A stretch of 64,000 nucleotides of DNA from Acidiferrobacterales bacterium (GCA_019633985.1 JAHQWE010000088.1:12956-76955), one strand, 5' to 3'; shown: positions 33,539-49,260, numbered from the stretch's first letter. Program-made: numbers and translations. Notes: a model not told the origin generated them from the sequence alone.

Positions 33539-34063
33539 TCACAACTTTGCAACCGCAGCCGCCAGCAATAGTCTGGAGTACAGTTTATGAAACCCAAGCA
33601 GTCGTTGATAAACTTTGCCAATTTGTCTTTGTCCGTTCTCAAGCTCTTCAGTCGGGACAATGGCTGTACCAAAATAGAGTTTGGTACGACTGGTGTTATT
33701 CGCTAGATCTGGTTCGACCATCAACCAGGATCGCGTCCGTTTTATGCAATCACACATAAGCAATTGATTGCTCTCGCGTTGTTCCACCGTCCAGGCGGAA
33801 AAGTGATCCAGATGGCCTTCAGCCAGTTCCTTGGCTTGTGAATCACTGGATGGTTTATCGATCCCTATTTTCAAAATGACTCTTTCGATTTTAAAAAGAA
33901 AGGAAGTGTAAAAGGCGATGACAAACTCAGGATGCGAGGCCTGTCTGTCAATGACTATGGAAAAACAATCGGTATACGCCCCTGGCAGAGTACGGTACGA
34001 CTCAAGAAGCGTTTGTCCTGGCAATATGTCTGCTTTTACCGCAAAAAACCGCTTCATTGCCAA
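33539..34063 (-). CDS. Hypothetical protein, translationally coupled between the dioxygenase and decarboxylase genes
   Basis: 174-aa ORF. Its start overlaps the upstream gene's end by 10 nt. No family recognised. Confidence 0.55.
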   Translation of the reverse strand: MAMKRFFAVKADILPGQTLLESYRTLPGAYTDCFSIVIDRQASHPEFVIAFYTSFLFKIERVILKIGIDKPSSDSQAKELAEGHLDHFSAWTVEQRESNQLLMCDCIKRTRSWLMVEPDLANNTSRTKLYFGTAIVPTEELENGQRQIGKVYQRLLGFHKLYSRLLLAAAVAKL

Positions 34064-36389: not shown

Positions 36390-36707
36390 GTTGTCTAAAT
36401 TGGAAACGTTATTGAGAGTTGGAGGTCGGAGTCGCAAAGGCAACATAAAACAAACCATTTGCGGAAATCACAGTGCAGTATCATTGTTATCGGTCAGCAC
36501 TCAATATCTGATGCAAAGTGACATCGCAGAGGCCAGCAACTCAGAATGGCGTGGTGGCTCCAATCGGTCAGAGACAATCACAATTGGTAGATGTTTTCTT
36601 TCAATTTGTCACTCGTCTTGATGAGTTTAAGGGCTAACAACCCATCACGAAAATCTTAGATTACCTCGAATCGATTCATTCAGCTGGCTAATTTCGGCCG
36701 CGAATAG

Positions 36708-36743
36708 ACAAATAAAAATCAATTCATCGTTGGAGATCGATGA
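36708..36743 (-). terminator. Weak candidate rho-independent terminator after the Rieske-like gene
   Basis: 6-bp stem TCATCG/CGATGA with an 8-nt loop. On the minus strand it is followed by AATTGATTTTTATTTG. Confidence 0.3.
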
Positions 36744-36769: not shown

Positions 36770-37510
36770 TTAACAAGAAACAGTATTGCTGGAATATAAA
36801 TCATGAGGCACCGCCAATGTCTGATCACTTACGGAAGCCCGAACATCAACGACTTTGTGATCTAACGCTAGTCGGAAACCAAATTTTTCAAAAAAAGAGT
36901 CGTATAGTTCACCGCCCCGTGTTCCCGTCGCATAATATCTGTCCGTTGAAGACTCGTATTCAAGCTCCACAGCGGCAAGTGGTTGAGTGGCAGGACCGCC
37001 AAGAACTTCAGCGCCATTCGCTGGATCATATGCGCTGCGTTCAGAACAGCAGTAGATTAACTGTCGCTGCTCCAGTGTTCCCTGGTTGTGACTGACAAAC
37101 CGGACCTTTTCAGAACGGTAATTAAGAAAACTCATTGTTTTAGTCGGATAGCTCAGCTTATGGGTGCAAATTGCTGAGAACGCGACGATTTGGTTTTCTG
37201 GCCCTGCCCCGCCTTGCCAGGTATAACTGCCCTGTGTTGCAGATTGCAAAGTCCTCCCGGCTATCAGCGGCTTTCCGAGATTAACCAAAAAGCACGGAGT
37301 CGTCACAAAAGGATAGTGAAAGATAAAAGGTTTATCTGCCTTGAGAGCGTTACTCCCAATGGGCTCCCCATTCTCATCGACAATCAATGATCGATGATAA
37401 CTTCTCACCGGTGCACTGGAGGCCAACAAGCGAGGATTAGCCGCGACAGCGGAGGCCGCGGTTACGCAGGTTTTTACAAATGTCCTGCGCGTTGAATTTA
37501 ATTTTTCCAT
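36770..37510 (-). CDS. Tat-exported Rieske-fold protein with non-canonical cluster-ligand positions
   Basis: MEKLNSTRRTFVKTCVTAASAVA is a twin-arginine signal. Box I is CTH. Box II reads CCSERSAYD where CPCHGSxFD is expected, followed by GGPATQPL. Start taken at ATG 37510; the track start at 37525 is TTG. Confidence 0.7.
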   Translation of the reverse strand: MEKLNSTRRTFVKTCVTAASAVAANPRLLASSAPVRSYHRSLIVDENGEPIGSNALKADKPFIFHYPFVTTPCFLVNLGKPLIAGRTLQSATQGSYTWQGGAGPENQIVAFSAICTHKLSYPTKTMSFLNYRSEKVRFVSHNQGTLEQRQLIYCCSERSAYDPANGAEVLGGPATQPLAAVELEYESSTDRYYATGTRGGELYDSFFEKFGFRLALDHKVVDVRASVSDQTLAVPHDLYSSNTVSC

Positions 37511-37515
37511 CTTCT

Positions 37516-38289
37516 CTATATCCAATGGAGGTACTGCGGGAGTGAGAGATCAACTGACTCTCCTGTGTCCATTTTAATCATACATGCGGCGTCTTCATAA
37601 ACCCCTGTTTGGGAACCAGATATCTCAGAGCCATCCAATAGCAATATATTGCTCAACTCTTTTTTCTCTGATCTGGTCTTCCAAAATGCCAGAATATGAT
37701 CGAATCCACGTTCGTCCCAGTTGTTAATTTCGGTGATGAATTGCCTTGCCCAGGTTTCAAGCAGCAGCTCGCGAGTGATATCACTATTGCCTTCAGCTTC
37801 TCTCACACTCATGGTCGCGAGTGAGAAATCGCCGTCATCATCTCCCGGTGCATGCATTAAGTTCACGGACACTGTGAGGGTCAACCATGGTCCTTCGGCA
37901 GATTTACCCTTATCAAGCCACACACTGGCAACCTTTTGACCTGCGATATATACGTCGTTCGGCCAGCGATACGTCAGTGAAGTCATTGGTGCTACATGGG
38001 TAGCCAGACTTGCTCCCAGACTGACCACCCCGAGTATCAAGATTTCGTGGAATCGCTCAGCGGGGAATTCCGGTTGCAGTATGAGTGAGAAATGCAGGTT
38101 TTCTGAAAAGCCCTGCCATTGTTTGTGCTGATAGCCCTCGGCCGCTGAAAGATTCGATGCAACCAATAGTGTGCCTTCTTCCACACCGGTGTCTGCGATA
38201 GCAGCCGAAGTACTTCTTAAGCATTCTACCTCCCCTACCTCTCTGAGGACGTATGCCGCCGGTAGCGATAGAGATTCTTCGAGTAGCAT
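37516..38289 (-). CDS. Biotin/lipoate protein ligase (BPL_LplA_LipB) fold protein with a degenerate nucleotide loop
   Basis: Aligns with the BirA catalytic core: YRWPNDVYIAGQKVASV vs KWPNDLYLQDRKLAGIL. BirA GRGRRGRKW is AEGYQHKQW here. ATG at 38289, 7 nt after the ankyrin gene's stop. Confidence 0.65.
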   Translation of the reverse strand: MLLEESLSLPAAYVLREVGEVECLRSTSAAIADTGVEEGTLLVASNLSAAEGYQHKQWQGFSENLHFSLILQPEFPAERFHEILILGVVSLGASLATHVAPMTSLTYRWPNDVYIAGQKVASVWLDKGKSAEGPWLTLTVSVNLMHAPGDDDGDFSLATMSVREAEGNSDITRELLLETWARQFITEINNWDERGFDHILAFWKTRSEKKELSNILLLDGSEISGSQTGVYEDAACMIKMDTGESVDLSLPQYLHWI

Positions 38290-38296
38290 CGTTCCG

Positions 38297-39025
38297 TTAA
38301 TCCTCGGATGCGTGCAATAACCTTGCCACGCTTCCATGTCCTCTCTCAGCAGCGTAATTGAGAGGTGTTCTCCCATCCGCATCTTTGAGATTGATATCAG
38401 CGCCGCCTGTAATCAAAATCCGCGCGACTTCCAGCCAACCCTGCGAAGCCGCGTGATGCAGCGCCGTCGCACCTTGATCGTCTAAAGCATTTACATCCAC
38501 TCCATCTGTGTTTACTAGCTTATCTACTACCCCGGTTTTGTTTTGATACGCCGCCCTGTGCAACGGTGTCCATTGATAAACGTCACGAGTATCCACTGAT
38601 GCACCGGCGTCGATCAAGCGCGATGTCGCATCAACATGCCCTTTGGCGGCGGCGATCATCAGCGCACCCCAGCCATTGCTGCCACGAAGGTTGATATCCA
38701 CCTTTCGCATTAAAAACAGCTCGATCGTATCGAGGTCACCGCTAATGGCCGCAAACATAATTGGTGTACCACCATTCTTATTCTTGAACGAAGGGTCTGC
38801 CCCTTTATTTAAGAGTTGCTCCACAAGGGAAGCCTTGCCAGCCTTTGCGGCTACCATAAGAGCGTTTTTACCAGTGTGATCGGCCACATCAATATTGTCG
38901 ATGTTCCCAGACAGGCTGGCAATTCCATCGAGATCACCATTCGAAATAGCACGAATCATTTCCTGCTCACTGGAAAGTGCGGAAAAGCTCAGCACACAGA
39001 GTAAAAATCCGAAGAATAATTTCAT
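38297..39025 (-). CDS. Secreted ankyrin-repeat protein
   Basis: Signal peptide MKLFFGFLLCVLSFSALS, then about six repeats with G-TPL/ALM-AA--GH-----LL--GAD periodicity. Confidence 0.85.
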   Translation of the reverse strand: MKLFFGFLLCVLSFSALSSEQEMIRAISNGDLDGIASLSGNIDNIDVADHTGKNALMVAAKAGKASLVEQLLNKGADPSFKNKNGGTPIMFAAISGDLDTIELFLMRKVDINLRGSNGWGALMIAAAKGHVDATSRLIDAGASVDTRDVYQWTPLHRAAYQNKTGVVDKLVNTDGVDVNALDDQGATALHHAASQGWLEVARILITGGADINLKDADGRTPLNYAAERGHGSVARLLHASED

Positions 39026-39558
39026 TGTTTATCAAGCTTCTCCTCACCGGAAATATGCGATGCATAATTTCCAGTGACTGCCTTAAGCGCGGCCATTGCA
39101 TCGTAACGCCCAGATAATCGAATCATGGCATCATGACTCACCGCGTCATCGAGAATGGAGCGATAACCCTCGCGTTCCTGATCCCGTAGCACCACCTGTT
39201 GACTATGAATAACGTGGTATGCGCCGTCAGCGAAGTAGAAAGGGAGATGGGATTGGTTCGCCAGATAGTTCAGCGTTTCAAATTGAACGTTGCCAATACC
39301 AGGCAGGATCAATACCTCCCCCGCCAGGGGTGTAGCAAGCCCGGTCATTACCTCAAATCGTAGCATCACCACAGCGGCGGTATCTTGCTCGATTAAATCT
39401 GCTTCCAATGCGATGGGTAACGGCTGCTGTGTGTGCAGCAGAACCTTCCTATCCTGCTCACATTCTTTGCCACCTAATTCAAAGAACACTGCAGACTGCC
39501 AAACTGTGTCGTCCATTTCAATTGGCAGGCAGGTCGTCATCGCACGACTGCTGCGCAT
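39022..39558 (-). CDS. Hypothetical cytoplasmic protein, first gene of the four-gene module
   Basis: Open frame 39022..39591. The stop overlaps the ankyrin start (ATGA). The start is uncertain: GTG 39591, ATG 39558 or ATG 39540, none with a good SD. Confidence 0.5.
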   Translation of the reverse strand: MRSSRAMTTCLPIEMDDTVWQSAVFFELGGKECEQDRKVLLHTQQPLPIALEADLIEQDTAAVVMLRFEVMTGLATPLAGEVLILPGIGNVQFETLNYLANQSHLPFYFADGAYHVIHSQQVVLRDQEREGYRSILDDAVSHDAMIRLSGRYDAMAALKAVTGNYASHISGEEKLDKQ

Positions 39559-39643
39559 ACTTTTAATTATCGAGGAGGGGAAACGATCCACGGGAAATTA
39601 GAAATTAATTAAGAACATCAATGTGAAGTGCCTTGCCCCATTC

Positions 39644-39678
39644 AAAATAAAAAGCCCCTGCTAATGCAAGGGCTTTTT
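39644..39678 (-). terminator. Rho-independent terminator after the formate dehydrogenase gamma gene (usable from either strand)
   Basis: GCCCCTGC-TAAT-GCAAGGGC hairpin (8 bp, one mismatch) flanked by AAAATAAAAA on one side and TTTTT on the other. The minus-strand transcript therefore ends hairpin + UUUUUAUUUU, 19 nt after the stop. Confidence 0.6.
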
Positions 39679-39696
39679 CACAGCGAGTGATTGAAA

Positions 39697-40788
39697 TCAG
39701 GTTGAGGTCGCTGTAGCTCCAGAAATTTCTGTTTCTTGTCTGCCAGCCTGATCCTTCACTTCTTCGTACCAGAGATCATGGTGTTGCTTCGCCCATTCTG
39801 CACTCACTCGACCACTTGTCATTCCTTCCAATGCACCTTCGGTACCTAGAGTACCGATATACGCATGGCCGAAGAAGCCTACAATCCAAATAATCGCCGC
39901 AATTGCGTGAATTTGATGGGCGAACTGCATCGTCGCTCTTCCACCATCAACCACACCATATTGTGCTGCCCAACCAATGAGTACCAGACCCGACCCACAA
40001 ACTGCAATAAGGCCGACAAAAATCACAATCCAATACCATAGTTTTTCGCCACCATTGAGCTTTCCCGCACTCGGGTGCGCATTGCCGATCAGACCACCGC
40101 CCTTGGCAAACCATTTCATATCGGTTCCGTTGGGAATATTGTTCTTAACCCAAACCAAAAGCATGGCAAAAACACCAAGCGCGAAAAACGGTCCTACGTA
40201 ATTATGTACCGTGATAGATAGATTTGCCCACATCCCAAAACCTTTCGCTCCGAGAAGCGGGATCAGTACCGCTCTGCCAAATAAAAGACTAAGGCCTGAG
40301 ATAGTCAGCAATACGAACAAAATGGCTGTGTACCAGTGCATCACCCTTTCCCAGGTTTTCCATCTCGGTACGGTTAAGCCAGAGCTTTCTTCCTCTACCT
40401 TTATCCTTCCACGTAACAAGAAAAAGAGAACGATCGCTCCCAGCCCCAAAACAATCGCCCAGCCGCCATAGTTGGCGATCACTCCATTGCGCAATTGACG
40501 CCAGTTTTGGCCGCCATTGTTAATGAACACGCCTGCTTCTGGACCAGATACTGAACTGTATCCAGGTTTTCCCTCACGAACCGCACGCCAAAAATTAGCG
40601 CGTTGATTATTATCGTTGTTAACCTGCGCATAAGCATCATCTGCGCTAAAAAGGTAAGAAGCGGTTGGCAAAATCGTCGCACTCATCACAATGAAGACGA
40701 ATGACCACAACATTGATTTCCAACGATTGCGAGCTTTCTTCACAGGTGCTTTGTCCATGGTGGTTTTGCTTTTAGTTTTTTGTTTCAT
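39697..40788 (-). CDS. Formate dehydrogenase gamma subunit (di-haem cytochrome b, FdnI-like, with N-terminal TM plus periplasmic extension)
   Basis: N-terminal anchor, a ~70-aa periplasmic segment, then four TM helices with conserved His (VMHWYTA, ITVHNYVGP, QIHAIAAIIW...GHAYIG). Confidence 0.8.
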   Translation of the reverse strand: MKQKTKSKTTMDKAPVKKARNRWKSMLWSFVFIVMSATILPTASYLFSADDAYAQVNNDNNQRANFWRAVREGKPGYSSVSGPEAGVFINNGGQNWRQLRNGVIANYGGWAIVLGLGAIVLFFLLRGRIKVEEESSGLTVPRWKTWERVMHWYTAILFVLLTISGLSLLFGRAVLIPLLGAKGFGMWANLSITVHNYVGPFFALGVFAMLLVWVKNNIPNGTDMKWFAKGGGLIGNAHPSAGKLNGGEKLWYWIVIFVGLIAVCGSGLVLIGWAAQYGVVDGGRATMQFAHQIHAIAAIIWIVGFFGHAYIGTLGTEGALEGMTSGRVSAEWAKQHHDLWYEEVKDQAGRQETEISGATATST

Positions 40789-40811
40789 AGTTTTGTCGCC
40801 CTATTAAGTTG

Positions 40812-40840
40812 CAAGATGAATAGATGAATCACTCATCTTG
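40812..40840 (-). promoter_or_regulatory. Intercistronic hairpin between the mini-lipoprotein and gamma genes
   Basis: Perfect 8-bp stem CAAGATGA/TCATCTTG with a 13-nt loop. The T-run lies on the plus-strand side only, so it is not a canonical terminator for the operon strand. Confidence 0.4.
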
Positions 40841-40897
40841 TTTTGTTTGTTCCCAAAAACCAGTTTGCAGACTAGGAGAGTCTCACAGCCAAGAAAA

Positions 40898-41077
40898 TCA
40901 GCGATCGCGCTGACCCTCAAGGCGGGTCTGCAACGCTTCCGCATCGGTTTTTAGGGAATCACTTGCGCCAAAATATTTTCCAGGTTCATGAAAGGTAACG
41001 TCAGAGGATTCCCAGCAGCCGGTTAACACCGCACTGAAAGAAATCAAAACAATCAGCCTGGCTATTTTTTTAATCAT
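40898..41077 (-). CDS. Mini-lipoprotein encoded inside the formate dehydrogenase operon
   Basis: MIKKIARLIVLISFSAVLTGCWESS has a signal peptide plus lipobox (L-T-G-C). About 59 aa from ATG 41077; the track start is GTG 41095. Confidence 0.55.
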   Translation of the reverse strand: MIKKIARLIVLISFSAVLTGCWESSDVTFHEPGKYFGASDSLKTDAEALQTRLEGQRDR

Positions 41078-41158
41078 TGTTTTAATTTGTCTCACTCATA
41101 ACCAAATATTGGATCAGGGTCTCGGTCGCAGCATTGTGGTTTCTGCTTTTGACCGCTT

Positions 41159-41188
41159 CCGGAGGAGAAGCGATGACTTCCCCTCCGG
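41159..41188 (-). promoter_or_regulatory. Strong intercistronic stem-loop between the beta-subunit and mini-lipoprotein genes
   Basis: CCGGAGGAGAAG-cgatga-CTTCCCCTCCGG: a 12-bp GC-rich stem with one mismatch. No U-tract follows on the coding strand. Confidence 0.5.
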
Positions 41189-41211
41189 TTCAAGCAAACC
41201 CCTTTCAGCGA

Positions 41212-41796
41212 TTAACTGCTGTAAGCAGTTTCCCAACCCCAGGTTTGAGGGCGTCCGCCTCTTTTGAGGATACGTTCACGATAGATATCAGCGACCATGT
41301 CACCGTCTCCCGCAATCAGTGCTTTGGTAGAACACATCTCCGCACAAAGTGGTAGCTTACCTTCTGCCATTCTGTTTCGACCGTACTTCTCTTTTTCGGC
41401 TGCAGAATTGTCATCGGCTGGACCGCCAGCGCAGAATGTACATTTATCCATCTTGCCACGGACACCAAAAGCCTCTTCTTGCGGATACTGCGGCGCACCA
41501 AAGGGGCATGCGTAGAAACAGTAACCACAACCAATACAAAGATCTTTATCGTGCAGCACAACGCCATCATCAGTGGTGTAAAAGCAATCTACCGGGCACA
41601 CCGCGGAACATGGTGCATCGGTACAGTGCATACAAGCAACCGAAATCGATTTCTCGCCTGCTTCGCCATCACCTAGCGTGATAACCCGGCGACGGTTCAC
41701 GCCCCACGGTACTTCATGCTCATTCTTGCATGCAGTCACACAGCCGTTACATTCAATACAACGCTCTGCATCGCACAAAAATTTCATTCTTGCCAT
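41212..41796 (-). CDS. Formate dehydrogenase beta subunit (4Fe-4S ferredoxin-type, no membrane anchor)
   Basis: Four Cys clusters: CIECNGCVTAC, CMHCTDAPCSAVCP, CIGCGYCFYACP and CTFC...C. Confidence 0.85.
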   Translation of the reverse strand: MARMKFLCDAERCIECNGCVTACKNEHEVPWGVNRRRVITLGDGEAGEKSISVACMHCTDAPCSAVCPVDCFYTTDDGVVLHDKDLCIGCGYCFYACPFGAPQYPQEEAFGVRGKMDKCTFCAGGPADDNSAAEKEKYGRNRMAEGKLPLCAEMCSTKALIAGDGDMVADIYRERILKRGGRPQTWGWETAYSS

Positions 41797-41813
41797 CGTT
41801 TTAATCCTCCAGC

Positions 41814-44681
41814 TTATGCGACTGAGATTTTACAGAGAGACACCTTAGTCTCCTGCATCTGGGTTACGGAATCGTAGCCGTAGGTAAAAGCAGTGTTCAC
41901 TGCTTCACCCCTTACATACGGCGCAGTTCCCTCGGGATACTTATCGTGCAAATCTTCACCCTGATAGTGCCCGCCAAAATGGAATGGCGCGGAAGCGACC
42001 CCTGGTGCTACGCGTTTGGTGACCATGGCCTTAACCTTGATCTTCGCGCCCTCGGGAGTCTCTATCCAGACCATGTTCCCATCCTTAACGCCATTGTCAT
42101 TAGCATCTTTGGGATTGATCTCTACGAACATTTCCTGCTGTAGCTCCGCCAGCCAAGGGTTAGAACGTGACTCATCTCCACCTCCCTCATATTCGACCAG
42201 TCTGAAGCTGGAGAAAATAATTGGGAATTCTTTTGAGTGATCCTCAGCCTGGATTGATGCATATCGCGTAGGCAACCGATAAAACCGCTTGCGATCTTCG
42301 TAAGTGGGGTATTTTTCAACCAACTCACGATCTGGCGCGTACAGAGGTTCCCGATGCACCGGTACCCGATCTGGGAAAGTCCAAACAATCGCTCTCGCTT
42401 TCGCGTTTCCAAACGGCGCACAACCATGTTTAATAGCAACTCTTTGAATGCCACCAGACAAGTCGGTCTTCCAGTTTTTGCCTTCCGCCGCTGCTTGCTC
42501 TTCTGGTGTCAGATCTTCCCACCACCCGAGGCTCTTCAACAAATCTGCTGAAAATTCCGGGTGTCCGTCCTGAATTTCGTTGCCTTTAGGCCAGGAATCC
42601 TCAGCAAGGATATTGTTGCCTTCATGCTCAACACCAAACCGGGCTCGGAAGTTCAAGCCGCCTTCCGCCACTGGCTTGCTAGGATCGTAGAGTACTGGTG
42701 TACCCGGATGACCCATCTCAGCCGTTCCCCAGCAAGGCCAGGGCATACCATAGTACTCCCCATCACAGGGACCGCCTTCGGCTTTCAAGGTTGTGGTGTT
42801 GAAAGTGTGTTTGTTTTCCATATGCTTTTTCAAGCGCTCTGGACTTTGACCGGTGTAGCCGATGGTCCACATACCCTTATTGAATTCACGAGTGATGTCT
42901 TCAATTAGCGGCTCATCACCATTGACCTGAATGTTTTTGCAGAACTGCTCTGCGAAGCCAAATTTTTTGGCAAACAGGTACATGATTTCATGGTCAGGCT
43001 TGGAGTCAAATAGCGGCTCGATGACTTTCTCACGCCACTGCAGAGAGCGGTTGGATGCCGTTACTGACCCATAAGTTTCAAACTGGGTAGTAGCAGGTAG
43101 CAACCAAACACCGTCTGTGCGATCGTTCAGTACCGCCGCATGGGTTGGATACGGGTCAATGATGACCATCATATCGAGCTTAGACATCGCCTTTTTCATC
43201 TCTGGGCCACGAGCCTGACTGTTCACCGCATGTCCGTTGTAAACCATGCAGCGAATGTTGTCTTTCTGGCCAATGCTTTCTTCCAAAACACCGTCGACCC
43301 ATCGAGAAACGGGAATGCCCCGGTAGTGCATCGGATGCACTGGTTTGCCTTTATCCCCTTCAACTTCTTCTGAACTGAACTGACCTTTGACCCACTCAAA
43401 GTCAAGGCCCCAGACTTTCGACCAATGCTTCCAAGATCCTGCACTTAAACCGTAGTAACCCGGTAGCGAGTGAGACAGAACGCAGAAGTCAGTCGCGCCT
43501 TGTACATTGTCGTGGCCGCGGAAAATATTGGCGCCGCCGCCTTCTTTACCGATATTGCCCAACGCCAGCTGGAAGGCGCAGTAGGCACGGGTGTTATTGT
43601 TACCAATTGTGTGTTGGGTACCCCCCATACACCACACAAAAGTTGCCGGACTATTTTTCGCCATCATTTCTGCGGCGGTCTTTACCACGTCTTCTGGCAC
43701 CCCAGTGACGCGCTCTGTTTCTTCTGGTGTCCACTTGGCAACTTCTGCCTGAACTTCATCCATTCCGTAAACACGCTGTCGGATGTATTCCTTATCTTCC
43801 CAGCCGTTTTCAAAGATGTGCCACATCATGCCCCAGATTATCGCGACATCCGTTCCCGGACGAATTTGCACGAAGTGATCAGCATGGGCTGCTGTTCGGG
43901 TGTAGCGAGGGTCGATAACCACCATTTTGGAGCCGTTTTCTTTAGCACGAAAAATGTGCTGCAGAGAAACCGGATGCGCTTCAGCAGGGTTGGACCCGAT
44001 AAACAACATACATTTACTGTTATGCATGTCGTTGTAGGAGTTGGTCATCGCACCGTAGCCCCAGGTGTTCGCTACCCCGGCTACTGTGGTGGAGTGACAA
44101 ATTCGTGCCTGGTGGTCAACGTTGTTGGTTCCCCACATCGCGGCAAACTTGCGGAACATATACGACTGTTCGTTGTTGTGCTTCGCAGAACCGAGCCAAT
44201 AAACGGAATCCGGACCAGACTCTTCCCGGATTTTCATCATGCCATCACCGATTTCGTTGATCGCATCGTCCCATGACATCTTCTTCCACTTGCCCCCAAC
44301 CAACTTCATCGGTGTTTTAAGGCGTTTTTCACCGTGACCATGTTCACGCACCGATGCACCTTTGGCGCAGTGGGCGCCGAGGTTGAAAGGCGAATCAAAA
44401 TCCGGCTCCTGACCGGTCCAAACACCATTTTGCACTTCTGCTCTTACTCCACAACCAACAGAACAGTGGGTGCAGACACTACGTTTAATGGTGATGTCAC
44501 CGCCCGCATCGGCACTCGCCGCATGGGCTTTCTTCACTCGGCCCGGGGCTAGCAGGGTTGCTGCAGCGCCAGTTCCTACCGCCAGACCGGAGCGCTTTAA
44601 GAAGGTTCGTCGGTCAACCGATTGACCGATTCCTGCAGGCGCTTTTACCTCGACTCCTGGCTGCTTTCTAATAAGTTTCAT
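41814..44681 (-). CDS. Formate dehydrogenase alpha subunit, periplasmic molybdopterin enzyme (FdnG-like, Cys instead of Sec)
   Basis: Start at ATG 44681 behind GGAGAAAG. Tat signal DRRTFLKRSGLAVG, FeS motif CTHCSVGCG, and active site HQARICHSTTV (E. coli FdnG has U at the Cys position). No in-frame TGA. Confidence 0.9.
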   Translation of the reverse strand: MKLIRKQPGVEVKAPAGIGQSVDRRTFLKRSGLAVGTGAAATLLAPGRVKKAHAASADAGGDITIKRSVCTHCSVGCGVRAEVQNGVWTGQEPDFDSPFNLGAHCAKGASVREHGHGEKRLKTPMKLVGGKWKKMSWDDAINEIGDGMMKIREESGPDSVYWLGSAKHNNEQSYMFRKFAAMWGTNNVDHQARICHSTTVAGVANTWGYGAMTNSYNDMHNSKCMLFIGSNPAEAHPVSLQHIFRAKENGSKMVVIDPRYTRTAAHADHFVQIRPGTDVAIIWGMMWHIFENGWEDKEYIRQRVYGMDEVQAEVAKWTPEETERVTGVPEDVVKTAAEMMAKNSPATFVWCMGGTQHTIGNNNTRAYCAFQLALGNIGKEGGGANIFRGHDNVQGATDFCVLSHSLPGYYGLSAGSWKHWSKVWGLDFEWVKGQFSSEEVEGDKGKPVHPMHYRGIPVSRWVDGVLEESIGQKDNIRCMVYNGHAVNSQARGPEMKKAMSKLDMMVIIDPYPTHAAVLNDRTDGVWLLPATTQFETYGSVTASNRSLQWREKVIEPLFDSKPDHEIMYLFAKKFGFAEQFCKNIQVNGDEPLIEDITREFNKGMWTIGYTGQSPERLKKHMENKHTFNTTTLKAEGGPCDGEYYGMPWPCWGTAEMGHPGTPVLYDPSKPVAEGGLNFRARFGVEHEGNNILAEDSWPKGNEIQDGHPEFSADLLKSLGWWEDLTPEEQAAAEGKNWKTDLSGGIQRVAIKHGCAPFGNAKARAIVWTFPDRVPVHREPLYAPDRELVEKYPTYEDRKRFYRLPTRYASIQAEDHSKEFPIIFSSFRLVEYEGGGDESRSNPWLAELQQEMFVEINPKDANDNGVKDGNMVWIETPEGAKIKVKAMVTKRVAPGVASAPFHFGGHYQGEDLHDKYPEGTAPYVRGEAVNTAFTYGYDSVTQMQETKVSLCKISVA

Positions 44682-44754
44682 TCTACTTTCTCCTGAACCA
44701 TTCACTGGTTCATCAGTTTTTCAAAAATACTGTTTTAAAAATTGGAACCGGGTT

Positions 44755-44967
44755 CTAAAAACGGGCCAAACGATAATACTCGCGCACATGTTTGGTCTCC
44801 TGGTATCCGAGACTTTGGCTCTTTTTGGTTTCACTGGTCGTTTCATCCGCAATGGCGTCAGTCGCGAGTACACCAGCCCCCGCTGCTGCAGAAGCAACCG
44901 CAGCGCCTTTGAGGAATTCTCTCCGCGCTGTTTGGGGTTTCTCTTTCTTTATGTCGGTGTCTTTCAT
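44755..44967 (-). CDS. Small Tat-signal protein ('formate dehydrogenase region TAT target' family)
   Basis: ARREFLKGAAVASAAAGAG twin-arginine signal in a 70-aa protein immediately upstream of the alpha subunit. I recall a family with this arrangement (TIGR02811 from memory, unchecked). Confidence 0.7.
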   Translation of the reverse strand: MKDTDIKKEKPQTARREFLKGAAVASAAAGAGVLATDAIADETTSETKKSQSLGYQETKHVREYYRLARF

Positions 44968-45065
44968 GGTTCCTACCTCATTTTTCTGAAATTCAAACGT
45001 TCAATTATTTAGTTAATGGATTCACTGTTGGTTCTGTTATCCCGGCTCATCATTCGCGCTGCTAT

Positions 45066-45734
45066 CTAATGATCCTGGATGTTTAAATATTGGTTCTCCA
45101 AAGCGATGAAGCGCTGACCCAGTATGCCCACCGCACGATAAAAATCAGCATTTTTTGCATTTTCGAGTTCGCTGAAAAACTTACCCGCCCAAGAGTAGAT
45201 ATGCTGTAGATAAAAACGCCGCTGCTGGTAGCTCTCGATATCATCTGCGGTAATCAAGATAGACATGGTTTCACAGATCGCTGCGATATGGTCTTCCGGC
45301 TCCTTTCGCTCAGGGTCCGATTCAAATCCCAAAGCTTTCAAATCAGCCCGCAGCTCTCCCAAAGGTTTGTCCATCAAAAACCCAGTGAGGTGCCAGGATG
45401 CGTAGGGGACGACTTCGCCTCGACCGAGGCCAACAAACAAAGCGTGATATTCGTCGTCCAGTTCAGTCAAACTGGATGTTCTAGCAGCAGCTTTAAGCCG
45501 TCGCCAGGCATCACCCACATTGTCTGCACTGTCTTGGGGGAGGTCTTCTTCATCGAGTGACTCGATACTTGAGATGTATTCGATCAGCTCTTTCGACGGA
45601 ACGTCGCTCAGCAGAGAAGCTAATATCGTGTAGGTACGGGAACGAGCCTGATCCTCGTCACGTATCAGTGTTTGCACTTGTTCACCGCCCGACAGATTTT
45701 GCTCATCCGCCGATAGCGACACTGTTTCCCGCAA
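45066..45734 (-). CDS. TorD/DmsD-family redox-enzyme maturation chaperone
   Basis: Size, helical character and RSRTYTILASLL...YHALFVG pattern fit the family. TTG start behind GGAGAG. Confidence 0.65.
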   Translation of the reverse strand: MRETVSLSADEQNLSGGEQVQTLIRDEDQARSRTYTILASLLSDVPSKELIEYISSIESLDEEDLPQDSADNVGDAWRRLKAAARTSSLTELDDEYHALFVGLGRGEVVPYASWHLTGFLMDKPLGELRADLKALGFESDPERKEPEDHIAAICETMSILITADDIESYQQRRFYLQHIYSWAGKFFSELENAKNADFYRAVGILGQRFIALENQYLNIQDH

Positions 45735-46088
45735 TTGCTCTCTCCAGAGGTGGTTGTCCGCCGCAAGTTAATTTTGCGGTTGGTATTACGTTCCTCGATT
45801 TACGATCAACGAACGTTTTTTTTAGTATTAGCCGGCTACTCTAACCAGACCTTTGTTACGATTCAAGCCGGTCTTACTTACCCGCACGTTGCACGCCTTA
45901 CACTCGCCGTGCTCCAAGCGGATTAAATCAGCTTATTCCTCCATAAAATCAGTATCTTGCGACTGCTTAAACGCCTTAAGGCAGAAAAGAGCATATAATG
46001 GGAGGAAAATATCCTAATAAAACGTAAATTTAAGAAAATTATCCTGCTTCCTAGGGCGTCAGGTGCACTTTAGATCGCTTTAATCACT

Positions 46089-47720
46089 TCAGGCAGATTC
46101 GTTGAACATATCTGCCACACGACAATCTTCACACATTCTCAATCGATTCAACGCTTCCGGTTTTTCAAACATCCAGTGCCCGCTCAATTTCTCGGTCATC
46201 CGATCAATCATGGCATTGGTCGCGAAAGGTTTATTACACTGGATGCAGCGAAATGGTTCTTCCTCTTTGAGAGCCCGTACTTTCTTTGCGGCAATACCAT
46301 CAAATAAAAAGCGCGGTGCCAAAGTGAGTGCACTCTCCGGACATGCAGTCGCACACAGTCCACACTGCAGACAATTGGCTTCGATAAACTTGAGCGCAGG
46401 GGACTCCCCTCCCGCTTCCAAAGCGCTGGCTGGACAAACTGAAACACATGCCATGCAGAGGGTGCAGGCATCGTAGTCGAGGGAAACCTCGCCAAATATA
46501 CTGTTCTCTGGCAATTTAGCATATTCGGGTTTGGCAACAGATTGTGCATAAAGGAATTCAAGGGCATTACGGATCAGCGCTCTCTTACTGCCAATACCAG
46601 CGTAAGTGGCAACAGTTTCCAATCGGCTTTCATCTTCTTTATCGCTGGAAAGCTCGACGACGTCGGAAATGATATTGAGTTCATAGCCATCCAGATTCAA
46701 TGTCCGGAGCAGGTCGTGGAGCAATGTCGCATCCCGCCCTACACTTGCGGCAATCTGTTCGCTCACCGTTTCGGGCACCAGTATATGAAGGCGGTTTGCA
46801 CCATATGCCAGTGCCGCGCTCATAAGGTCGAGTCCCACCGAGCCAATTTCCTCCACTTCCAGTGGCAAAACATGCTCGGGTAAGCCCTCACCTCCACGGA
46901 TAATTTTCTCTCCATGCTCAATGTCATAGATCAATAGTGAAATACCGCGAGACTCCCGGCGTTCGCGAAAATCGCGGGTCATCTGACGCAAAAACTCGAT
47001 TTGCTCTTCCGCCTGCGGATAGCGGTAGCTGATTGCCCCAGAAGGACAACTGGCAGTGCAACTCCCGCCGCCCTGGCAAAGATGCGGGTTGACTTCAATT
47101 TGCTCGCCGATGGAAATAATTGCATCGGTTGGGCATGCCTCAATACAGCGTCGACATCCTTGCAAACCACTGCGACCATGCGCGCAGATGTCTGGGTTGT
47201 AGTCAAAAAACTTGGGCTTTTCGAATTCCCCGATCAGCTCGGGAATCTGTGCCAGGGCCGCATCCAGCTTTTCGGTATCGCCGCCAGGAAAGTAATAACC
47301 CGGCGGCTTGATCGCAGCGCCGATCATGGCTGACTCACCGAGGTCAATAACCTGATCAAATAAGCCGTTAGCAACCCCGAGCATCACACCGATATTGGTC
47401 TGATCAGACTCCGCTTGGGAATGGCTTCCGGTAGGTAAATGCAAAGAAAAGCGACCCAGATACCCTTCCAGTTTTGCGCCAGAAAAGCGATCTTCGGCTG
47501 GGTCCATCGAAAAACATTCAACTGGAGCGGGCAAGGTCGATTCTATTTTTTCGACCTCTTCTCCATCACCAATAATCAAAACACGATTGGCAGCGGTGTA
47601 AGACACATTGGTTGTTGGGGTCGGTTGCCAGGGAATCGCGCTGAGCACTTGCTCACGAGCGGTTCCAGATTCAGAACTTGCGGTTAACGTTAACGCGATA
47701 GTGTCCAGATAGTTTGACAT
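46089..47720 (-). CDS. Multi-cluster 4Fe-4S ferredoxin-domain protein (polyferredoxin)
   Basis: Motifs CRRCIEACP, CQGGGSCTASCP, CTLCMACVSVCP and CLQCGLCATACP, plus a C-terminal CIQC...CEDC pair. Confidence 0.8.
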   Translation of the reverse strand: MSNYLDTIALTLTASSESGTAREQVLSAIPWQPTPTTNVSYTAANRVLIIGDGEEVEKIESTLPAPVECFSMDPAEDRFSGAKLEGYLGRFSLHLPTGSHSQAESDQTNIGVMLGVANGLFDQVIDLGESAMIGAAIKPPGYYFPGGDTEKLDAALAQIPELIGEFEKPKFFDYNPDICAHGRSGLQGCRRCIEACPTDAIISIGEQIEVNPHLCQGGGSCTASCPSGAISYRYPQAEEQIEFLRQMTRDFRERRESRGISLLIYDIEHGEKIIRGGEGLPEHVLPLEVEEIGSVGLDLMSAALAYGANRLHILVPETVSEQIAASVGRDATLLHDLLRTLNLDGYELNIISDVVELSSDKEDESRLETVATYAGIGSKRALIRNALEFLYAQSVAKPEYAKLPENSIFGEVSLDYDACTLCMACVSVCPASALEAGGESPALKFIEANCLQCGLCATACPESALTLAPRFLFDGIAAKKVRALKEEEPFRCIQCNKPFATNAMIDRMTEKLSGHWMFEKPEALNRLRMCEDCRVADMFNESA

Positions 47721-47784
47721 AACTCATATTGTTTGAAGGTCAATCCCATTAATTTTCTGAGGAAGTAAGCGCTTGATCAGTGGT

Positions 47785-48498
47785 TCAGGAATGTGGCGAT
47801 GAATCCGGTTCATTATCAGTTTCAGCCGCGATCTGATCGTCGCTGAGCGGCGACTCGGTTGGGGATTGGTCTTGTTCATCAACATCGGTAGTAACGTCTT
47901 GATCCAAAGCCTCTCCAGACTCTTCTTCTGCTGCTAGAGTCTCTTGTTTTAAAGCCTCCTCATCATGATGCTCAACGGACTCATCTGCTGCCTCTGATTC
48001 TGCAAGCGCTTTTAGGCGCTTTTCCTCTTCCACTTCGGCACGATGTTTCATATCGCAGGTAACAATATCTCCCAAGGGTGCAAAATTGGTGAAGTCTTCA
48101 TCATAGTCATCTAGTCCGTCTCGAATATTGAAGCCGGCGCCGGCAAACAGCTTTCTCAGCGCTAATTTGCGTAATTTGTCGCTGACACCAGGAGACATAA
48201 ACCCGGTGAAGTCACTACCCTCATTGAGGGTATCAATCTCCGGCATATCCGCATCAGTCAAAATGGGCTCCCGCTCTTCGGAGTGGGCGAGCTCTTCTTT
48301 AAGTCTGTCAGCTTCCACTGTCGTCGACATTCGGCCTGTAGTAGCGCCCGGCATCACCGTATTCAAAGGGATTTTCGGGAGGCTCTCGCTCTCGATGTTC
48401 CCCTCGGCACCCTCATCAGGTTTGTCTTCCTCCAATTTTCGACGCGACCACCGGGAAACAAAACCTTCGTTTTCGTGTGATTGATCTTTGATACTCAA
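47785..48498 (-). CDS. DUF3306-family protein
   Basis: N-terminal GFVSRWSRRK motif as recalled for DUF3306. The rest is an acidic low-complexity tail. TTG start. Confidence 0.6.
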   Translation of the reverse strand: MSIKDQSHENEGFVSRWSRRKLEEDKPDEGAEGNIESESLPKIPLNTVMPGATTGRMSTTVEADRLKEELAHSEEREPILTDADMPEIDTLNEGSDFTGFMSPGVSDKLRKLALRKLFAGAGFNIRDGLDDYDEDFTNFAPLGDIVTCDMKHRAEVEEEKRLKALAESEAADESVEHHDEEALKQETLAAEEESGEALDQDVTTDVDEQDQSPTESPLSDDQIAAETDNEPDSSPHS

Positions 48499-48603
48499 CT
48501 GCGTTTTTCCTATTTTCTATTTAAAGACATATCTTTGGTACCAAGTGATCGATCACCCGCCGGGATATTGCTGACCGAGTAGCGCCGACCCAACAGCGAC
48601 GAA

Positions 48604-48636
48604 GGCTCAAAACACTACGGATTACCGTGTTGAGCC
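48604..48636 (-). promoter_or_regulatory. Intercistronic hairpin between the DUF3305 and DUF3306 genes
   Basis: GGCTCAAAACAC ... GTGTTGAGCC forms about 10 paired bases with a small bulge. Nearby is a perfect 12-bp palindrome GTGATCGATCAC at 48545..48556. Confidence 0.3.
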
Positions 48637-48675
48637 GAAAAGGATAAAACGGTATACACATTGCTTCCTTCGCAA

Positions 48676-49260
48676 TCATGGTTTACTCACCGGTTCTTGC
48701 ACAGCTGATTTGGTTTCAGAATTGCCGGAAATCTCATTTGGCTTATTGACATACAGAGAATCGTCCAGCCAGTCACGCCGTTTTCTCTTCTTCTTAATCG
48801 CCGGTTCATAGTGATCCACTACATATCGTTCCAGTAAGTCTCTAATTGGTTCAGGCATTGCTACAGATAAAACAATGTCATCTGATTCCAGGTGTCCTGT
48901 GGCTTCGTCCTGGTTGGCCGTAATAAACACTGGCTCAATTTGTTTCGCGTCTTGCTCACCCTCACAGACCACGAATAAGTAGGGTTCCTCAGAAAGCAGG
49001 TTATACCAATACCCTTCACTACCGTCTTTGTACAGTTCCAGCAACAAGCCGCCGTGAAAACTGGTGATCGAGTCACTGGTATCAGACTCTTCCGGATAGC
49101 CATCAGCTTCATCTATCGCATTACCAGTGAGCACCTTTTCGATATTCCAGGTCGGGTATCCCCACTTTTTGGTCCGATCGATTTCTCGGCGCAACACAAC
49201 TGCGACAGGTATTTTGATGCGCGAGTCCGTCTCAATAATCTGCGTAGAGATTTCAGTCAT
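48676..49260 (-). CDS. DUF3305-family protein
   Basis: 194-aa ORF. The family assignment comes from its position next to the DUF3306 gene and polyferredoxin, and from memory of the family; not checked. Confidence 0.55.
   Translation of the reverse strand: MTEISTQIIETDSRIKIPVAVVLRREIDRTKKWGYPTWNIEKVLTGNAIDEADGYPEESDTSDSITSFHGGLLLELYKDGSEGYWYNLLSEEPYLFVVCEGEQDAKQIEPVFITANQDEATGHLESDDIVLSVAMPEPIRDLLERYVVDHYEPAIKKKRKRRDWLDDSLYVNKPNEISGNSETKSAVQEPVSKP

Follow-up and report, generated by a model that had tools for sequence, protein, structure and literature searches.

Organization of the locus

The window, i.e., the complete stretch of 64,000 nucleotides from an Acidiferrobacterales bacterium that was analysed, carries a periplasmic formate dehydrogenase operon of the FDH3 type, recognised by family profile matches, and four genes behind it that are here named g1, Ank, BPL-like and Rsk. 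All these features lie on the minus strand and are given in the direction of transcription:

39697..49260, minus strand: FDH3-type periplasmic formate dehydrogenase operon
48676-49260, minus strand: DUF3305 gene of the FDH3-type operon
47785-48498, minus strand: DUF3306 gene of the same operon
46089-47720, minus strand: polyferredoxin gene of the same operon
45066-45734, minus strand: TorD-like gene of the same operon
44755-44967, minus strand: small Tat peptide gene of the same operon
41814-44705, minus strand: FdhA, same operon
41212-41796, minus strand: FdhB, same operon
40898-41095, minus strand: 65-aa open reading frame of the same operon, between FdhB and FdhC
39697-40788, minus strand: FdhC cytochrome b, same operon
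39649..39678, minus strand: terminator-like hairpin with a 13-bp stem, 6 G-C pairs, a 4-nt loop and a T-run
39022..39591, minus strand: g1, cytoplasmic orphan of 189 aa, GTG start
38297..39025, minus strand: Ank, ankyrin-repeat protein of 242 aa with an N-terminal Sec-type signal peptide
37516..38289, minus strand: BPL-like, 257 aa, biotin/lipoate-ligase fold with a degenerate biotin loop and without a signal peptide
36770..37510, minus strand: Rsk, 246 aa, Tat signal and Rieske fold of the AioB/SoxF type
36724..36743, minus strand: weak terminator-like hairpin 3' of Rsk (hairpin scan), the end of the module

The FDH3_beta (fdh3B) equivalog profile is matched with 342 bits (cut-off 240) and the FDH gamma profile TIGR01583 with 161 bits (cut-off 116), and an identical order of the fdh operon genes is present in the related loci L001, L002, L004 and L006-L017. 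The upstream part of the locus matches exactly the operon type DUF3305-DUF3306-fer4-TorD-'fdh tat'-fdhGHI described by Bay et al. 2015 (PMC4464133); in the passages of that article considered here, the account ends at fdhI (gamma) and the g1-Ank-BPL-Rsk set is absent.

The original prediction placed four same-strand open reading frames behind the FDH gamma gene (fdhC), tightly packed and encoding two cytoplasmic and two periplasmic products, and in these respects it was confirmed. All the coordinates were verified on the minus strand; the stop codon of g1 and the start codon of Ank overlap in an ATGA (39025..39022), the stop of Ank (38297) is followed after 7 nt by the ATG of BPL-like at 38289, and the stop of BPL-like (37516) after 5 nt by the ATG of Rsk at 37510; export signals are predicted for Ank and Rsk, and none for g1 or BPL-like. 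Judged from the sequence, the overlap and the short gaps appear to be set up for translational coupling. The next gene beyond Rsk encodes an EamA transporter (35469-36458) and is unrelated to the module.

The hairpin at 39649..39678, which is strong and GC-rich and was detected by scanning and folding, lies between fdhC and g1 and begins 19 nt past the fdhC stop codon. A comparable GC hairpin with a T-run, of differing sequence, was detected behind fdhC in 34 of 52 related loci, and a comparison of the 39649..39678 hairpin with Rfam gave sub-threshold matches only. A conserved terminator-like hairpin in this position is evidence against a simple co-transcription of g1 with fdhABC. It had not been mentioned in the original prediction.

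Rsk, a Rieske-fold protein with an altered metal site

The Tat motif of Rsk is RRTFVK, and its twin arginines are invariant in the family; export by this route usually means that a protein has been folded and loaded with its cofactor beforehand. A search of Pfam, including the Rieske family, gave no match even at E <=10, and in NCBIfam the protein is recognised below the curated Rieske thresholds, by SoxL2 (TIGR03171; 4e-29, 101.5 bits, cut-off 582) and AioB (TIGR02694; 7e-14, 51.8 bits, cut-off 95.65). A profile search of the PDB retrieved SoxF (8.8e-15) with the ligand residues aligned, and the AlphaFold2 model (pLDDT 88) superimposes on AioB in Foldseek with a TMt of 0.84-0.88 and an rmsd of 1.1-1.8 Å, as a Rieske β-sandwich. 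The family is large, with more than 2400 homologues and occurrence in at least 585 species genomes.

Rsk thus resembles AioB, the Rieske small subunit of arsenite oxidase (PDB 1g8j, 1g8k, 8cgs), with which it shares the fold, and the archaeal Rieske protein SoxF/SoxL2 (PDB 1jm1), to which it is similar at the profile level; a Tat signal, a Cys-x-His first box and the GGxGP and PCF motifs are common to all of them. Like AioB, Rsk is predicted to be a periplasmic partner encoded at the locus of a Mo/W-bisPGD enzyme, but the place of AioA is taken here by a formate dehydrogenase, the alpha subunit of which carries a Tat signal of its own. The predicted metal site consists of Cys115-x-His117 and Cys154-Cys155-Ser156-Glu157, together with the C-terminal Cys246. 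While box I (C115-T-H117) conserves the Cys-x-His ligands of Rieske proteins, box II reads Cys-Cys-Ser-Glu in place of the Cys-x-x-His of AioB and SoxF, and Glu157 aligns with the His ligand of both. The cysteines of the inter-loop disulfide, a feature of high-potential Rieske proteins, are also replaced in all sequences, by Ser or Thr at one position and by Ser at the other (S120 and S156 in Rsk). Two additional differences from AioB and SoxF are a C-terminal extension of approx. 45 residues that ends in the invariant Cys, and an invariant Cys within the signal peptide.

All 83 sequences contain C115, H117, C154, C155, S156 and C246, and 82 of them contain E157, although motif invariance among the genome loci is partly built in, given that the CCSE and AIC[AS]H motifs supplied the patterns with which these loci were fetched; the HMMER-derived sets show no variation at these residues either. 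It had been claimed that Rsk lost canonical residues. The replacement of His by Glu and of the disulfide Cys by Ser stands, whereas the idea of loss or decay does not, since the replacements are invariant across the family, which indicates that the site has changed. The predicted metal site of Rsk is, from its sequence conservation, remodelled and retained rather than lost. Only one lysine of the protein, K118, is well conserved, and 21 of the 83 sequences have Arg or Gln in its place.

The ankyrin protein and g1

Ank matches Ank_2 (3.6e-46) and contains six Ank stretches detected with Pfam, forming tandem repeats of 33 residues. Its N-terminus is a Sec-type signal (MKLFFGFLLCVLSFSALS), and similar signal-peptide-like N-termini occur in nearly all the ankyrin proteins of the related loci, which are therefore predicted to be periplasmic. 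In nearly all loci the ankyrin gene is directly downstream of fdhC or of g1. Catalase-adjacent ankyrin genes offer a precedent, because their product is needed for catalase activity, probably via haem (PMC7567364, citing Howell 2000 and Flint 2015). Similarly to Ank, AnkB of Pseudomonas aeruginosa and Cj1386 of Campylobacter jejuni are small exported ankyrin-repeat proteins encoded directly beside the gene of a haem redox enzyme. Ank is of this type in that it is predicted to be exported and its gene is located 3' of fdhC, which encodes a cytochrome b; however, the resemblance is restricted to generic ankyrin repeats, and the partner here would be the di-haem cytochrome b of formate dehydrogenase, or Rsk, instead of a catalase.

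The N-terminal stretch MDRFPSSIIKSM of g1 is kept in its homologues with synonymous changes in the DNA, which shows that the long form of 189 aa is real; Cys21, within a 'TTC' motif, is invariant. Pfam and NCBIfam profile searches assigned g1 to no family. Its homologues amount to 55 in 5.8 G proteins and to 52 clusters among 1.84 G representatives. The AlphaFold2 model has a pLDDT of 91.4, and a Foldseek comparison with the PDB gave no match (best E 0.18, TM <=0.23). From this model, g1 represents a narrow orphan family with a confidently predicted fold and no counterpart in the PDB. DUF6505 (PF20115) was considered as an identity for g1 and rejected, since the Pfam search gave no match, hhalign gave a probability of 0.1% with a single DUF6505 sequence and likewise with an alignment of 13 of them, and the two genes are found together in the same loci.

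The biotin/lipoate-ligase-like protein

The BPL-like protein matches PF16917 (5.6e-20, 72 bits, Pfam cut-off 27) and reaches 64.4 bits with the NCBIfam equivalog TIGR00121, under the cut-off of 83.1. It aligns with PDB 2eay over residues ~25-243, i.e., over the BPL/LplA catalytic fold, and also matches PDB 3bfm, a structural-genomics protein of the PF16917 type. Its length of 257 aa is common to the homologues P0176-P0180. The catalytic-domain fold is shared with BirA and other group I ligases (PDB 2eay, 1wnl, 1bia), and the window copy keeps the WPND motif, the Asn in the 'GINV' strand and the catalytic lysine. In contrast with BirA, the GRGRxGRxW loop is lost in the window copy, where it reads AAEGYQHKQW, and is variable across the family, the score falls under the TIGR00121 cut-off, and the genomic context is not that of a biotin-dependent carboxylase. 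The loop is degenerate in most of 39 relatives and near-canonical in a few, e.g., L019; the window copy retains K119, equivalent to K183 of E. coli, as do 27 of the 39 relatives, whereas the remaining 12 have another residue at this position. Of the catalytic residues that were said to be lost from this protein, the loop is indeed gone from the window copy and the lysine is kept.

Given its score above the gathering threshold of PF16917 and its location at an FDH3 locus, the protein belongs to the FDH3-associated type. A 'biotin/lipoate--protein ligase family protein' (PF16917) is annotated in the FDH3 clusters of Sinorhizobium and Pseudosulfitobacter plasmids, and for these plasmids the original prediction was right in placing BPL-like and DUF genes beside DUF3305/DUF3306 formate dehydrogenase clusters. 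These alphaproteobacterial copies are distant homologues, with 20-24% identity to the one in the window, and their clusters have the same FdhC and contain BPL-like, DUF6505 and Mrp/NBP35 genes, but lack Rsk and the ankyrin gene; moreover, their BPL-like gene precedes DUF3305, whereas that of the window follows the structural genes and adjoins Rsk. Thus, the BPL-like gene is part of an older FDH3 kit, and its tie to FDH3 does not depend on Rsk or the ankyrin gene. DUF6505, which adjoins the BPL-like gene in some related loci, is the partner of the FDH3-associated PF16917 protein; a search of the window revealed no DUF6505 gene. Two of the families proposed for profile searches did not apply, as g1 is not DUF6505 and the profile of the C-terminal domain DUF4444 gave no match to the BPL-like protein of the window.

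Linkage to FDH3 across genomes

Linkage was evaluated in 80 species-level genomes with Rsk, counting as linked those with fdhC or fdhA within 10 kb. An FDH3-type operon stands beside Rsk in 52 of them, co-linear in 15 and convergent in 37, and these 52 loci fall into 12 gene-content classes; independent look-ups of the loci agree with this picture. The linkage of the module to FDH3 is not due to chance. Rsk and the ankyrin gene form the tightest pair, the latter being present in 51 of the 52 linked loci, and the order fdhC-g1-ankyrin is found in 35 of the 80. Immediately upstream of Rsk, 37 loci have the BPL-like gene and 8 have a gene for a Cys-rich YgbA_NO protein; DUF6505 is divergent from Rsk in other loci, and a Mrp/NBP35 Fe-S carrier gene follows it in L001 and L038. 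Many Rsk loci have no BPL-like gene or have YgbA in its stead; the cytoplasmic partner genes vary while Rsk persists.

About one-third of the Rsk loci, some of them on truncated contigs, have no adjacent FDH3 operon. In 9-10 loci without FDH3, Rsk is beside moeA and/or a tungsten-type AOR operon, and in two others beside a formate-THF ligase gene; the moeA/AOR loci belong to one closely related clade and represent roughly one evolutionary event. The hosts are uncultured Gammaproteobacteria, e.g., Arenicellales, Acidiferrobacterales, Poriferihabitaceae and Thioalkalivibrio-like groups; the linkage to FDH3 extends over dozens of marine ones.

The view of four genes that are not unrelated is supported by their co-occurrence with each other and with FDH3 operons in many genomes and in several independent arrangements, and none of the four matches a characterised family of unrelated function. 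The notion of a single four-gene module had to be abandoned, since the set consists of two sub-modules, g1-Ank and BPL-(Ank)-Rsk, usually on opposite strands and not derived from one ancestral operon; their in-line fusion is found only in the lineage of the window. The literature search retrieved no published description of the g1-Ank-BPL-Rsk module or of the altered site of Rsk.

Possible role of the module

We tentatively favour, at slightly less than an even chance, a reading in which the four genes extend the FDH3-type periplasmic formate dehydrogenase system in a lineage-specific way. With the same reserve, Rsk and the periplasmic ankyrin protein may together serve FDH3 as an additional redox partner or as a tether, and maturation may be the task of the cytoplasmic proteins. 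The g1-Ank sub-module trails fdhC behind the hairpin, which makes a lower expression probable, either by read-through or from a separate weak promoter. In most genomes the BPL-like-(Ank)-Rsk part stands apart and runs convergently to the fdh operon; in the lineage of the window it has been joined in line. Rsk would fold in the cytoplasm and acquire a metal centre there. The most likely centre is an Fe-S cluster with Cys115, His117 and Cys154 as ligands, a further ligand from Cys155 or Glu157, and perhaps a contribution of Cys246; after export via Tat, Rsk would serve as a periplasmic redox partner or electron outlet of FdhAB(C). The change from a His ligand to a carboxylate or thiolate, together with the loss of the disulfide, should lower the potential toward values that the steps after formate oxidation require. 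Ank, exported via Sec, could be a periplasmic adaptor that binds Rsk or fastens it to the enzyme. In the cytoplasm, the BPL-like protein may be a degenerate ligase-fold factor of a conserved FDH3 maturation kit that would also include DUF6505, Mrp/NBP35, DUF3305/3306 and the polyferredoxin, and g1 may be an additional helper.

Electrons from FdhAB already have a complete route to the cytochrome b FdhC, and the need for an extra acceptor is not obvious. In addition, the FDH3 of alphaproteobacteria works without Rsk or an ankyrin protein, and the Rsk loci beside moeA/AOR or formate-THF ligase genes indicate that Rsk may serve something broader than FDH3.

It is also conceivable, though unlikely, that all four proteins act only in the assembly of FDH3 and do not belong to the active enzyme; Ank would deliver or stabilise haem in FdhC as proposed for AnkB/Cj1386, Rsk would be a periplasmic assembly or docking factor, and the BPL-like protein and g1 would be cytoplasmic chaperones. 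The position of the ankyrin gene behind g1 or behind fdhC, which encodes a haem protein, and the catalase precedent (PMC7567364) agree with this possibility, the terminator ahead of g1 fits accessory factors of low stoichiometry, and the alphaproteobacterial BPL-like gene stands among maturation genes. Nevertheless, FdhAB leaves the cytoplasm via Tat in an already assembled state, so that little periplasmic assembly is left for a Tat-exported metalloprotein; the invariant Cys/His/Glu site and the abundance of Rsk homologues suggest a working cofactor site, and the alphaproteobacteria have the same FdhC and no ankyrin gene.

A general periplasmic stress or redox-sensing device formed by Rsk and Ank, for instance one that protects or repairs O2- or NO-sensitive Mo/W enzymes and is only loosely tied to FDH3, seems decidedly improbable. 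It would account for the eight loci with the NsrR-regulon-type YgbA_NO gene directly upstream of Rsk, for the neighbours found where FDH3 is absent, and for the ankyrin-catalase pair, which acts in oxidative stress (PMC7567364); however, FDH3 predominates among the neighbours and has been rearranged repeatedly, AOR and formate-THF ligase are enzymes of the cytoplasm while export is predicted for Rsk, and the moeA/AOR loci amount to about a single event.

Even less credit can be given to a BPL-like protein that, as a true ligase, adenylates a biotin- or lipoate-like carboxylic cofactor and, ahead of export, couples it to either Rsk or a subunit of FDH3. The fold with its PF16917 match, the lysine, the near-canonical loop of a few relatives and, in most loci with a BPL-like gene, the position of this gene just ahead of Rsk are compatible with such an activity. 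They are outweighed by the degenerate loop of the window copy and most relatives, the 12 relatives with the lysine replaced, the score under the TIGR00121 cut-off, the variability of K118, which is therefore not an obligatory acceptor, the many Rsk loci without a BPL-like gene or with YgbA, and the alphaproteobacteria that have the BPL-like gene without Rsk. That four unrelated genes happen to lie behind the operon in this genome, to which the hairpin between fdhC and g1 and the absence of a common annotated pathway might have pointed, is refuted by a linkage kept in dozens of species-level genomes despite changes of strand and order, and the gene spacing also speaks against it.

Regarding the reading of Rsk and Ank as additional partners of FDH3, the type of cluster and its potential are guesses, and a Glu at the position of the His could mean a mononuclear metal site or no metal. 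A bolder form of this reading, which we regard as rather doubtful, is that Rsk is the founder of a new class of Rieske-derived metalloproteins with a low-potential or unusual centre and that, with Ank as its adaptor, it provides hitherto unrecognised fourth and fifth subunits of FDH3 or a dedicated electron outlet. To our knowledge, if these proteins were subunits, Ank would be the first ankyrin-repeat component in a bacterial respiratory complex. If Rsk does represent such a class, this would concern the FDH3 of abundant uncultured Gammaproteobacteria of marine and sediment environments.

Gene order at the FDH3 locus

The four genes under study encode an orphan protein (g1), an ankyrin-repeat protein (Ank), a protein of biotin/lipoate-ligase fold (BPL-like) and a Rieske-fold protein with a Tat signal (Rsk). 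They follow the operon of an FDH3-type periplasmic formate dehydrogenase, and every relevant gene, those of the upstream operon included, lies on the minus strand. The upstream part of the locus is of the operon type described by Bay et al. 2015 (PMC4464133).

Genes of the FDH3 operon and of the trailing module in the window
49660-50508, divergent from the FDH3 operon: fdhD
48676-49260, minus: DUF3305
47785-48498, minus: DUF3306
46089-47720, minus: polyferredoxin, 543 aa
45066-45734, minus: TorD/NarJ-type chaperone
44755-44967, minus: Tat peptide, 70 aa
41814-44705, minus: FdhA (alpha subunit), RRTFLK signal, active-site Cys and not Sec
41212-41796, minus: FdhB (beta subunit), NCBIfam FDH3_beta, 342 bits against a cut-off of 240
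40898-41095, minus: 65-aa ORF between fdhB and fdhC
39697-40788, minus: FdhC (gamma subunit, cytochrome b), TIGR01583, 161 bits against a cut-off of 116
39591-39022, minus: g1, GTG start, 189 aa
39025-38297, minus: Ank, 242 aa
38289-37516, minus: BPL-like, 257 aa
37510-36770, minus: Rsk, 246 aa

The tight packing on which the original prediction relied, an ATGA overlap between g1 and Ank followed by spacers of 7 and 5 nt, was confirmed in the sequence. The gene beyond Rsk encodes an EamA transporter that is unrelated to the module; past it, the minus-strand region 32040-34839 encodes a LigB-type extradiol dioxygenase, an unannotated 174-aa ORF and a PLP-dependent decarboxylase, suggestive of a small cluster that modifies aromatic compounds or amino acids. 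Within the operon, the product of the 65-aa ORF (40898-41095, minus) carries a lipobox-like LTGC motif and a signal peptide; since 43 of 80 related loci (the best 80 of at least 585 genomes with Rsk) have a homologue at this position, it is likely to be a conserved small lipoprotein belonging to FDH3.

Linkage to FDH3 across genomes

A scan with the Rsk alignment, run on one genome per species, retrieved at least 585 genomes. The best 80 of these are all metagenome-assembled genomes, mostly of uncultured Gammaproteobacteria (Arenicellales, Acidiferrobacterales, Poriferihabitaceae, Granulosicoccaceae and Thioalkalivibrio/Ectothiorhodospiraceae-like groups), and their loci were annotated using the window's own proteins as queries. 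In 52 of these best 80 loci fdhC is present in the available flank; the other 28 are without FDH, several of them being truncated contigs. With the linkage to FDH3 recurring in this way, the proposal that the genes are a non-random module was borne out, and look-ups of single homologues returned the same neighbourhood in several orientations.

Fifteen of the 52 FDH-linked loci are co-linear, as in the window, with fdhC, g1, Ank, an optional BPL-like gene and Rsk in succession on one strand; the remaining 37 are convergent, with (DUF6505), BPL-like, (Ank2) and Rsk running towards fdhC, (g1) and Ank on the opposite strand, where brackets mark optional genes and Ank2 is a second, longer ankyrin paralogue. 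A single ancestral four-gene operon was rejected, given that the two halves lie on opposite strands in most genomes. The 52 loci represent 12 gene-content classes, and an ankyrin gene is found in 51 of them; over all 80 loci (best 80 of at least 585), 35 have g1, 37 have BPL-like and 12 have DUF6505.

Several other neighbours were observed. In eight FDH-linked loci that are without BPL-like and g1 (L026, L030, L046, L060, L064, L074, L081 and L082), a Cys-rich protein of the YgbA_NO family (PF11756, to which the NsrR-regulated ygbA of E. coli belongs) is encoded directly upstream of Rsk on the same strand, in the place of BPL-like. A gene for an Mrp/NBP35-type Fe-S carrier ATPase lies 3' of Rsk in L001 (12846-13916) and L038. 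In L027 (9977-13319) and L048, with FDH3 not nearby, Rsk converges on an ankyrin gene located behind a gene for formate-tetrahydrofolate ligase, a formate-related neighbour. In 9-10 loci of one clade that has no adjacent FDH3 operon (L023, L029, L031, L032, L034, L043, L055, L056, L061 and L080), Rsk is near a convergent moeA (at 0.3-3.6 kb) and/or an operon for a tungsten-type aldehyde:ferredoxin oxidoreductase (Fer4-AOR-FAD protein), which hints at a wider link of Rsk to Mo/W-pterin enzymes.

A tblastn search with DUF6505 against plasmids led to annotated FDH3 clusters of Sinorhizobium meliloti and Pseudosulfitobacter, in the order BPL-family protein, DUF6505, (DUF6352), DUF3305, DUF3306, TorD, small Tat protein, FdhA, fdh3B and FdhC. 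The same clusters carry polyferredoxin, DUF6494, Mrp/NBP35, ABC transporter and molybdenum-cofactor genes, and they have neither Rsk nor an ankyrin gene. For this reason the BPL-like gene is an Rsk-independent companion of FDH3, and Rsk, Ank and g1 have been added in the Gammaproteobacteria. In two alphaproteobacterial clusters (L086, 6155-8424; L087, 14525-16748) the ABC transporter (binding protein, ATPase and permease) and molybdopterin genes adjoin FDH3, an arrangement that would be consistent with a supply of molybdate or tungstate dedicated to the enzyme; in the Pseudosulfitobacter cluster (L087, 12200-13270) the Mrp/NBP35 carrier adjoins the BPL-like gene.

A hairpin between fdhC and the trailing genes

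A strong terminator-like hairpin with a T-run (39678-39649, minus; 13 bp, 6 G-C pairs) lies in the spacer between fdhC and g1, a feature absent from the original prediction. For this spacer Rfam gave sub-threshold terminator-type matches only and found no structured RNA; in a scan of 39592-39696 no sigma-70 promoter for g1 reached the threshold, a weak TTGAAT-17-ATTGAT being all that was seen by eye. Under a strict rule, a GC hairpin with a T-run is present 3' of fdhC in 34 of the 52 FDH-linked loci (L002, L004, L006-L012, L014, L017, L033, L039, L042 and others), and in more by eye; the position is conserved and the sequences are unrelated between loci. The break between fdhC and the trailing genes is therefore a conserved feature, which suggests programmed attenuation between the structural and the trailing genes.

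The remodelled site of Rsk

Rsk has no match in Pfam, and its matches in NCBIfam, to SoxL2 (4e-29) and AioB (7e-14), are sub-threshold. The solved sequences nearest to it are SoxF (profile E 8.8e-15) and AioB, and its AlphaFold2 model (pLDDT 88) superposes on AioB with a TMt of 0.84-0.88 and an rmsd of 1.1-1.8 A. Rsk resembles AioB and SoxF in fold and, putatively, in its working.

Rsk residues and their counterparts in SoxF/AioB, from the SoxF alignment
C115 and H117: box I ligands (Cys, His)
C154: box II Cys ligand
E157: second His ligand
S120 and S156: the two disulfide Cys
C155: box II Pro

Residues C15, C115, H117, C154, C155, S156 and C246 are present in 83 of 83 sequences, and C73 and E157 in 82 of 83 each, in a set whose genome loci were retrieved by pattern searches based on two of these motifs; the same site residues are conserved in the HMMER-retrieved sets. 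The twin-arginine motif is likewise invariant. The original prediction had described Rsk as deprived of canonical catalytic or ligand residues. The box II His and the disulfide Cys are indeed replaced, but the candidate ligand set as a whole is conserved in remodelled form; with these residues and the Tat motif kept, a simple loss of the cluster was rejected as stated. Since the defining features of the Rieske family fail (Rsk lacks the box II His and the disulfide, and scores under the curated thresholds), we do not class it with the Rieske [2Fe-2S] proteins or the arsenite oxidase subunits. On sequenced plasmids no true Rsk member was found, only bona fide AioB at 26-30% identity.

Two further invariant cysteines are not explained by the Rieske template: Cys15, inside the Tat signal peptide (RRxFVKxC), and Cys246, the last residue of a C-terminal extension of about 45 residues, whose equivalents lie at the end of the protein or at most 2 residues from it. 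Position 118 varies between Lys, Arg and Gln (Arg or Gln in 21 of 83 sequences), so that K118 is not an obligatory modification site.

The ankyrin, ligase-like and orphan proteins

Ank consists of six ankyrin repeats behind a Sec-type signal peptide, and signal-peptide-like N-termini occur in almost all its orthologues. Ank2, with its own signal peptide, is encoded between BPL-like and Rsk in convergent loci (L004/L013, L019, L022, L040, L066, L069, L077 and L079); it measures about 350-550 aa in stop-to-stop ORFs, and 403 aa as called in L004.

By profile score, BPL-like is a member of PF16917 (72 bits, above the cut-off of 27) and not BirA (64 bits, under the equivalog cut-off of 83). It is related to PDB 3bfm, a "biotin protein ligase-like protein of unknown function", and only distantly to the copies of S. 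meliloti and Pseudosulfitobacter (20-24% identity, E 1e-9 and 6e-8). A homologue search with a word prefilter gave 9 close relatives only, so the family alignment of 39 members was drawn from neighbours in Rsk loci. In the alignment with Aquifex BirA, the window copy has AAEGYQHKQW in place of the GRGRxGRxW loop; among the 39 members this loop is mostly degenerate, near-canonical in only 1-2, and the lysine is kept in 27. The loss of canonical residues that had been proposed is thus seen in the biotin loop of the window copy, but the lysine is retained there. At the level of sequence, the pattern is that of ligase chemistry under relaxed constraint, with a conserved core (EGT, WPN, Asn). Modification of Rsk Lys118 by BPL-like as an obligatory mechanism was rejected, on account of the substitutions at that position and of the degenerate ligase motifs.

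The g1 protein matches no family in Pfam or NCBIfam. Only 55 homologues were found among 5.8 billion proteins, and searching 1.84 billion representatives exhaustively with a profile gave only 52 clusters, all of the g1 family itself. The GTG start is real, because the N-terminal extension MDRFPSSIIKSM is conserved as protein in homologues, with synonymous changes in the DNA; the invariant residues include the Cys of a TTC motif. The AlphaFold2 model (pLDDT 91.4) has two beta-beta-alpha-beta-beta-like halves and a helical hairpin; Foldseek against the PDB gave no match (best E 0.18, TM at most 0.23), and a profile search of PDB sequences found nothing. A divergent DUF6505 was rejected, in view of the lack of a Pfam match at E up to 10, an hhalign probability of 0.1% and the occurrence of both in the same loci. 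The g1 protein is a member of no described family and has an orphan fold.

Possible role of the module

We tentatively favour a reading in which Rsk and Ank are an extra periplasmic redox partner or tether of FdhAB(C) and the cytoplasmic partners are helpers. A metal centre would be loaded into Rsk in the cytoplasm, and Rsk would then be exported to work in the periplasm with Sec-exported Ank, its most faithful companion. The conservation of the Tat motif and of the Cys/His/Glu set argues for a cofactor, and the variety of upstream partners (BPL-like, YgbA-like, DUF6505, Mrp) is in keeping with helpers in the cytoplasm. In Rieske chemistry, exchange of a His ligand for a carboxylate or thiolate, together with loss of the disulfide, should lower the potential; such a lowered potential would suit a place downstream of formate oxidation.

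Possible, though rather unlikely, is a role in assembly only, in which Ank would act by analogy with AnkB and Cj1386, catalase-linked ankyrin proteins (PMC7567364). A broader stress or redox role seems improbable. It is very doubtful that BPL-like is a true ligase modifying Rsk or FDH, its loop being mostly degenerate. Chance adjacency of the four genes is refuted by the FDH3 linkage in the locus survey (best 80 of at least 585 genomes) and can practically be dismissed.

Literature searches on FDH3, its DUF genes and Rieske/ankyrin partners gave no account of this module. What we infer to be new is a set of partners, accessory or for electron transfer, that serve a periplasmic molybdoenzyme and include an orphan fold and a new subfamily derived from Rieske proteins; the module is solidly conserved, unannotated and experimentally tractable, its function being our inference. 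The names now in use are "arsenite oxidase small subunit", "Rieske Fe-S protein", "biotin--protein ligase" and "hypothetical", the first and third of which are misleading for these proteins.

FDH3 occurs widely among Alpha- and Gammaproteobacteria, with sponge symbionts and sulfur oxidisers of sediments among its carriers, and to our knowledge its biochemistry is almost unstudied. It travels with a conserved, unannotated helper set that spans two compartments and leads to testable ideas on how electrons exit from FDH3 and how the enzyme matures. Rsk itself is a natural ligand-replacement experiment on the Rieske site (Glu for His, tandem Cys, no disulfide), preserved unchanged across at least 585 species; should it bind a cluster, it would extend both the ligand chemistry and the potentials known for the Rieske fold.
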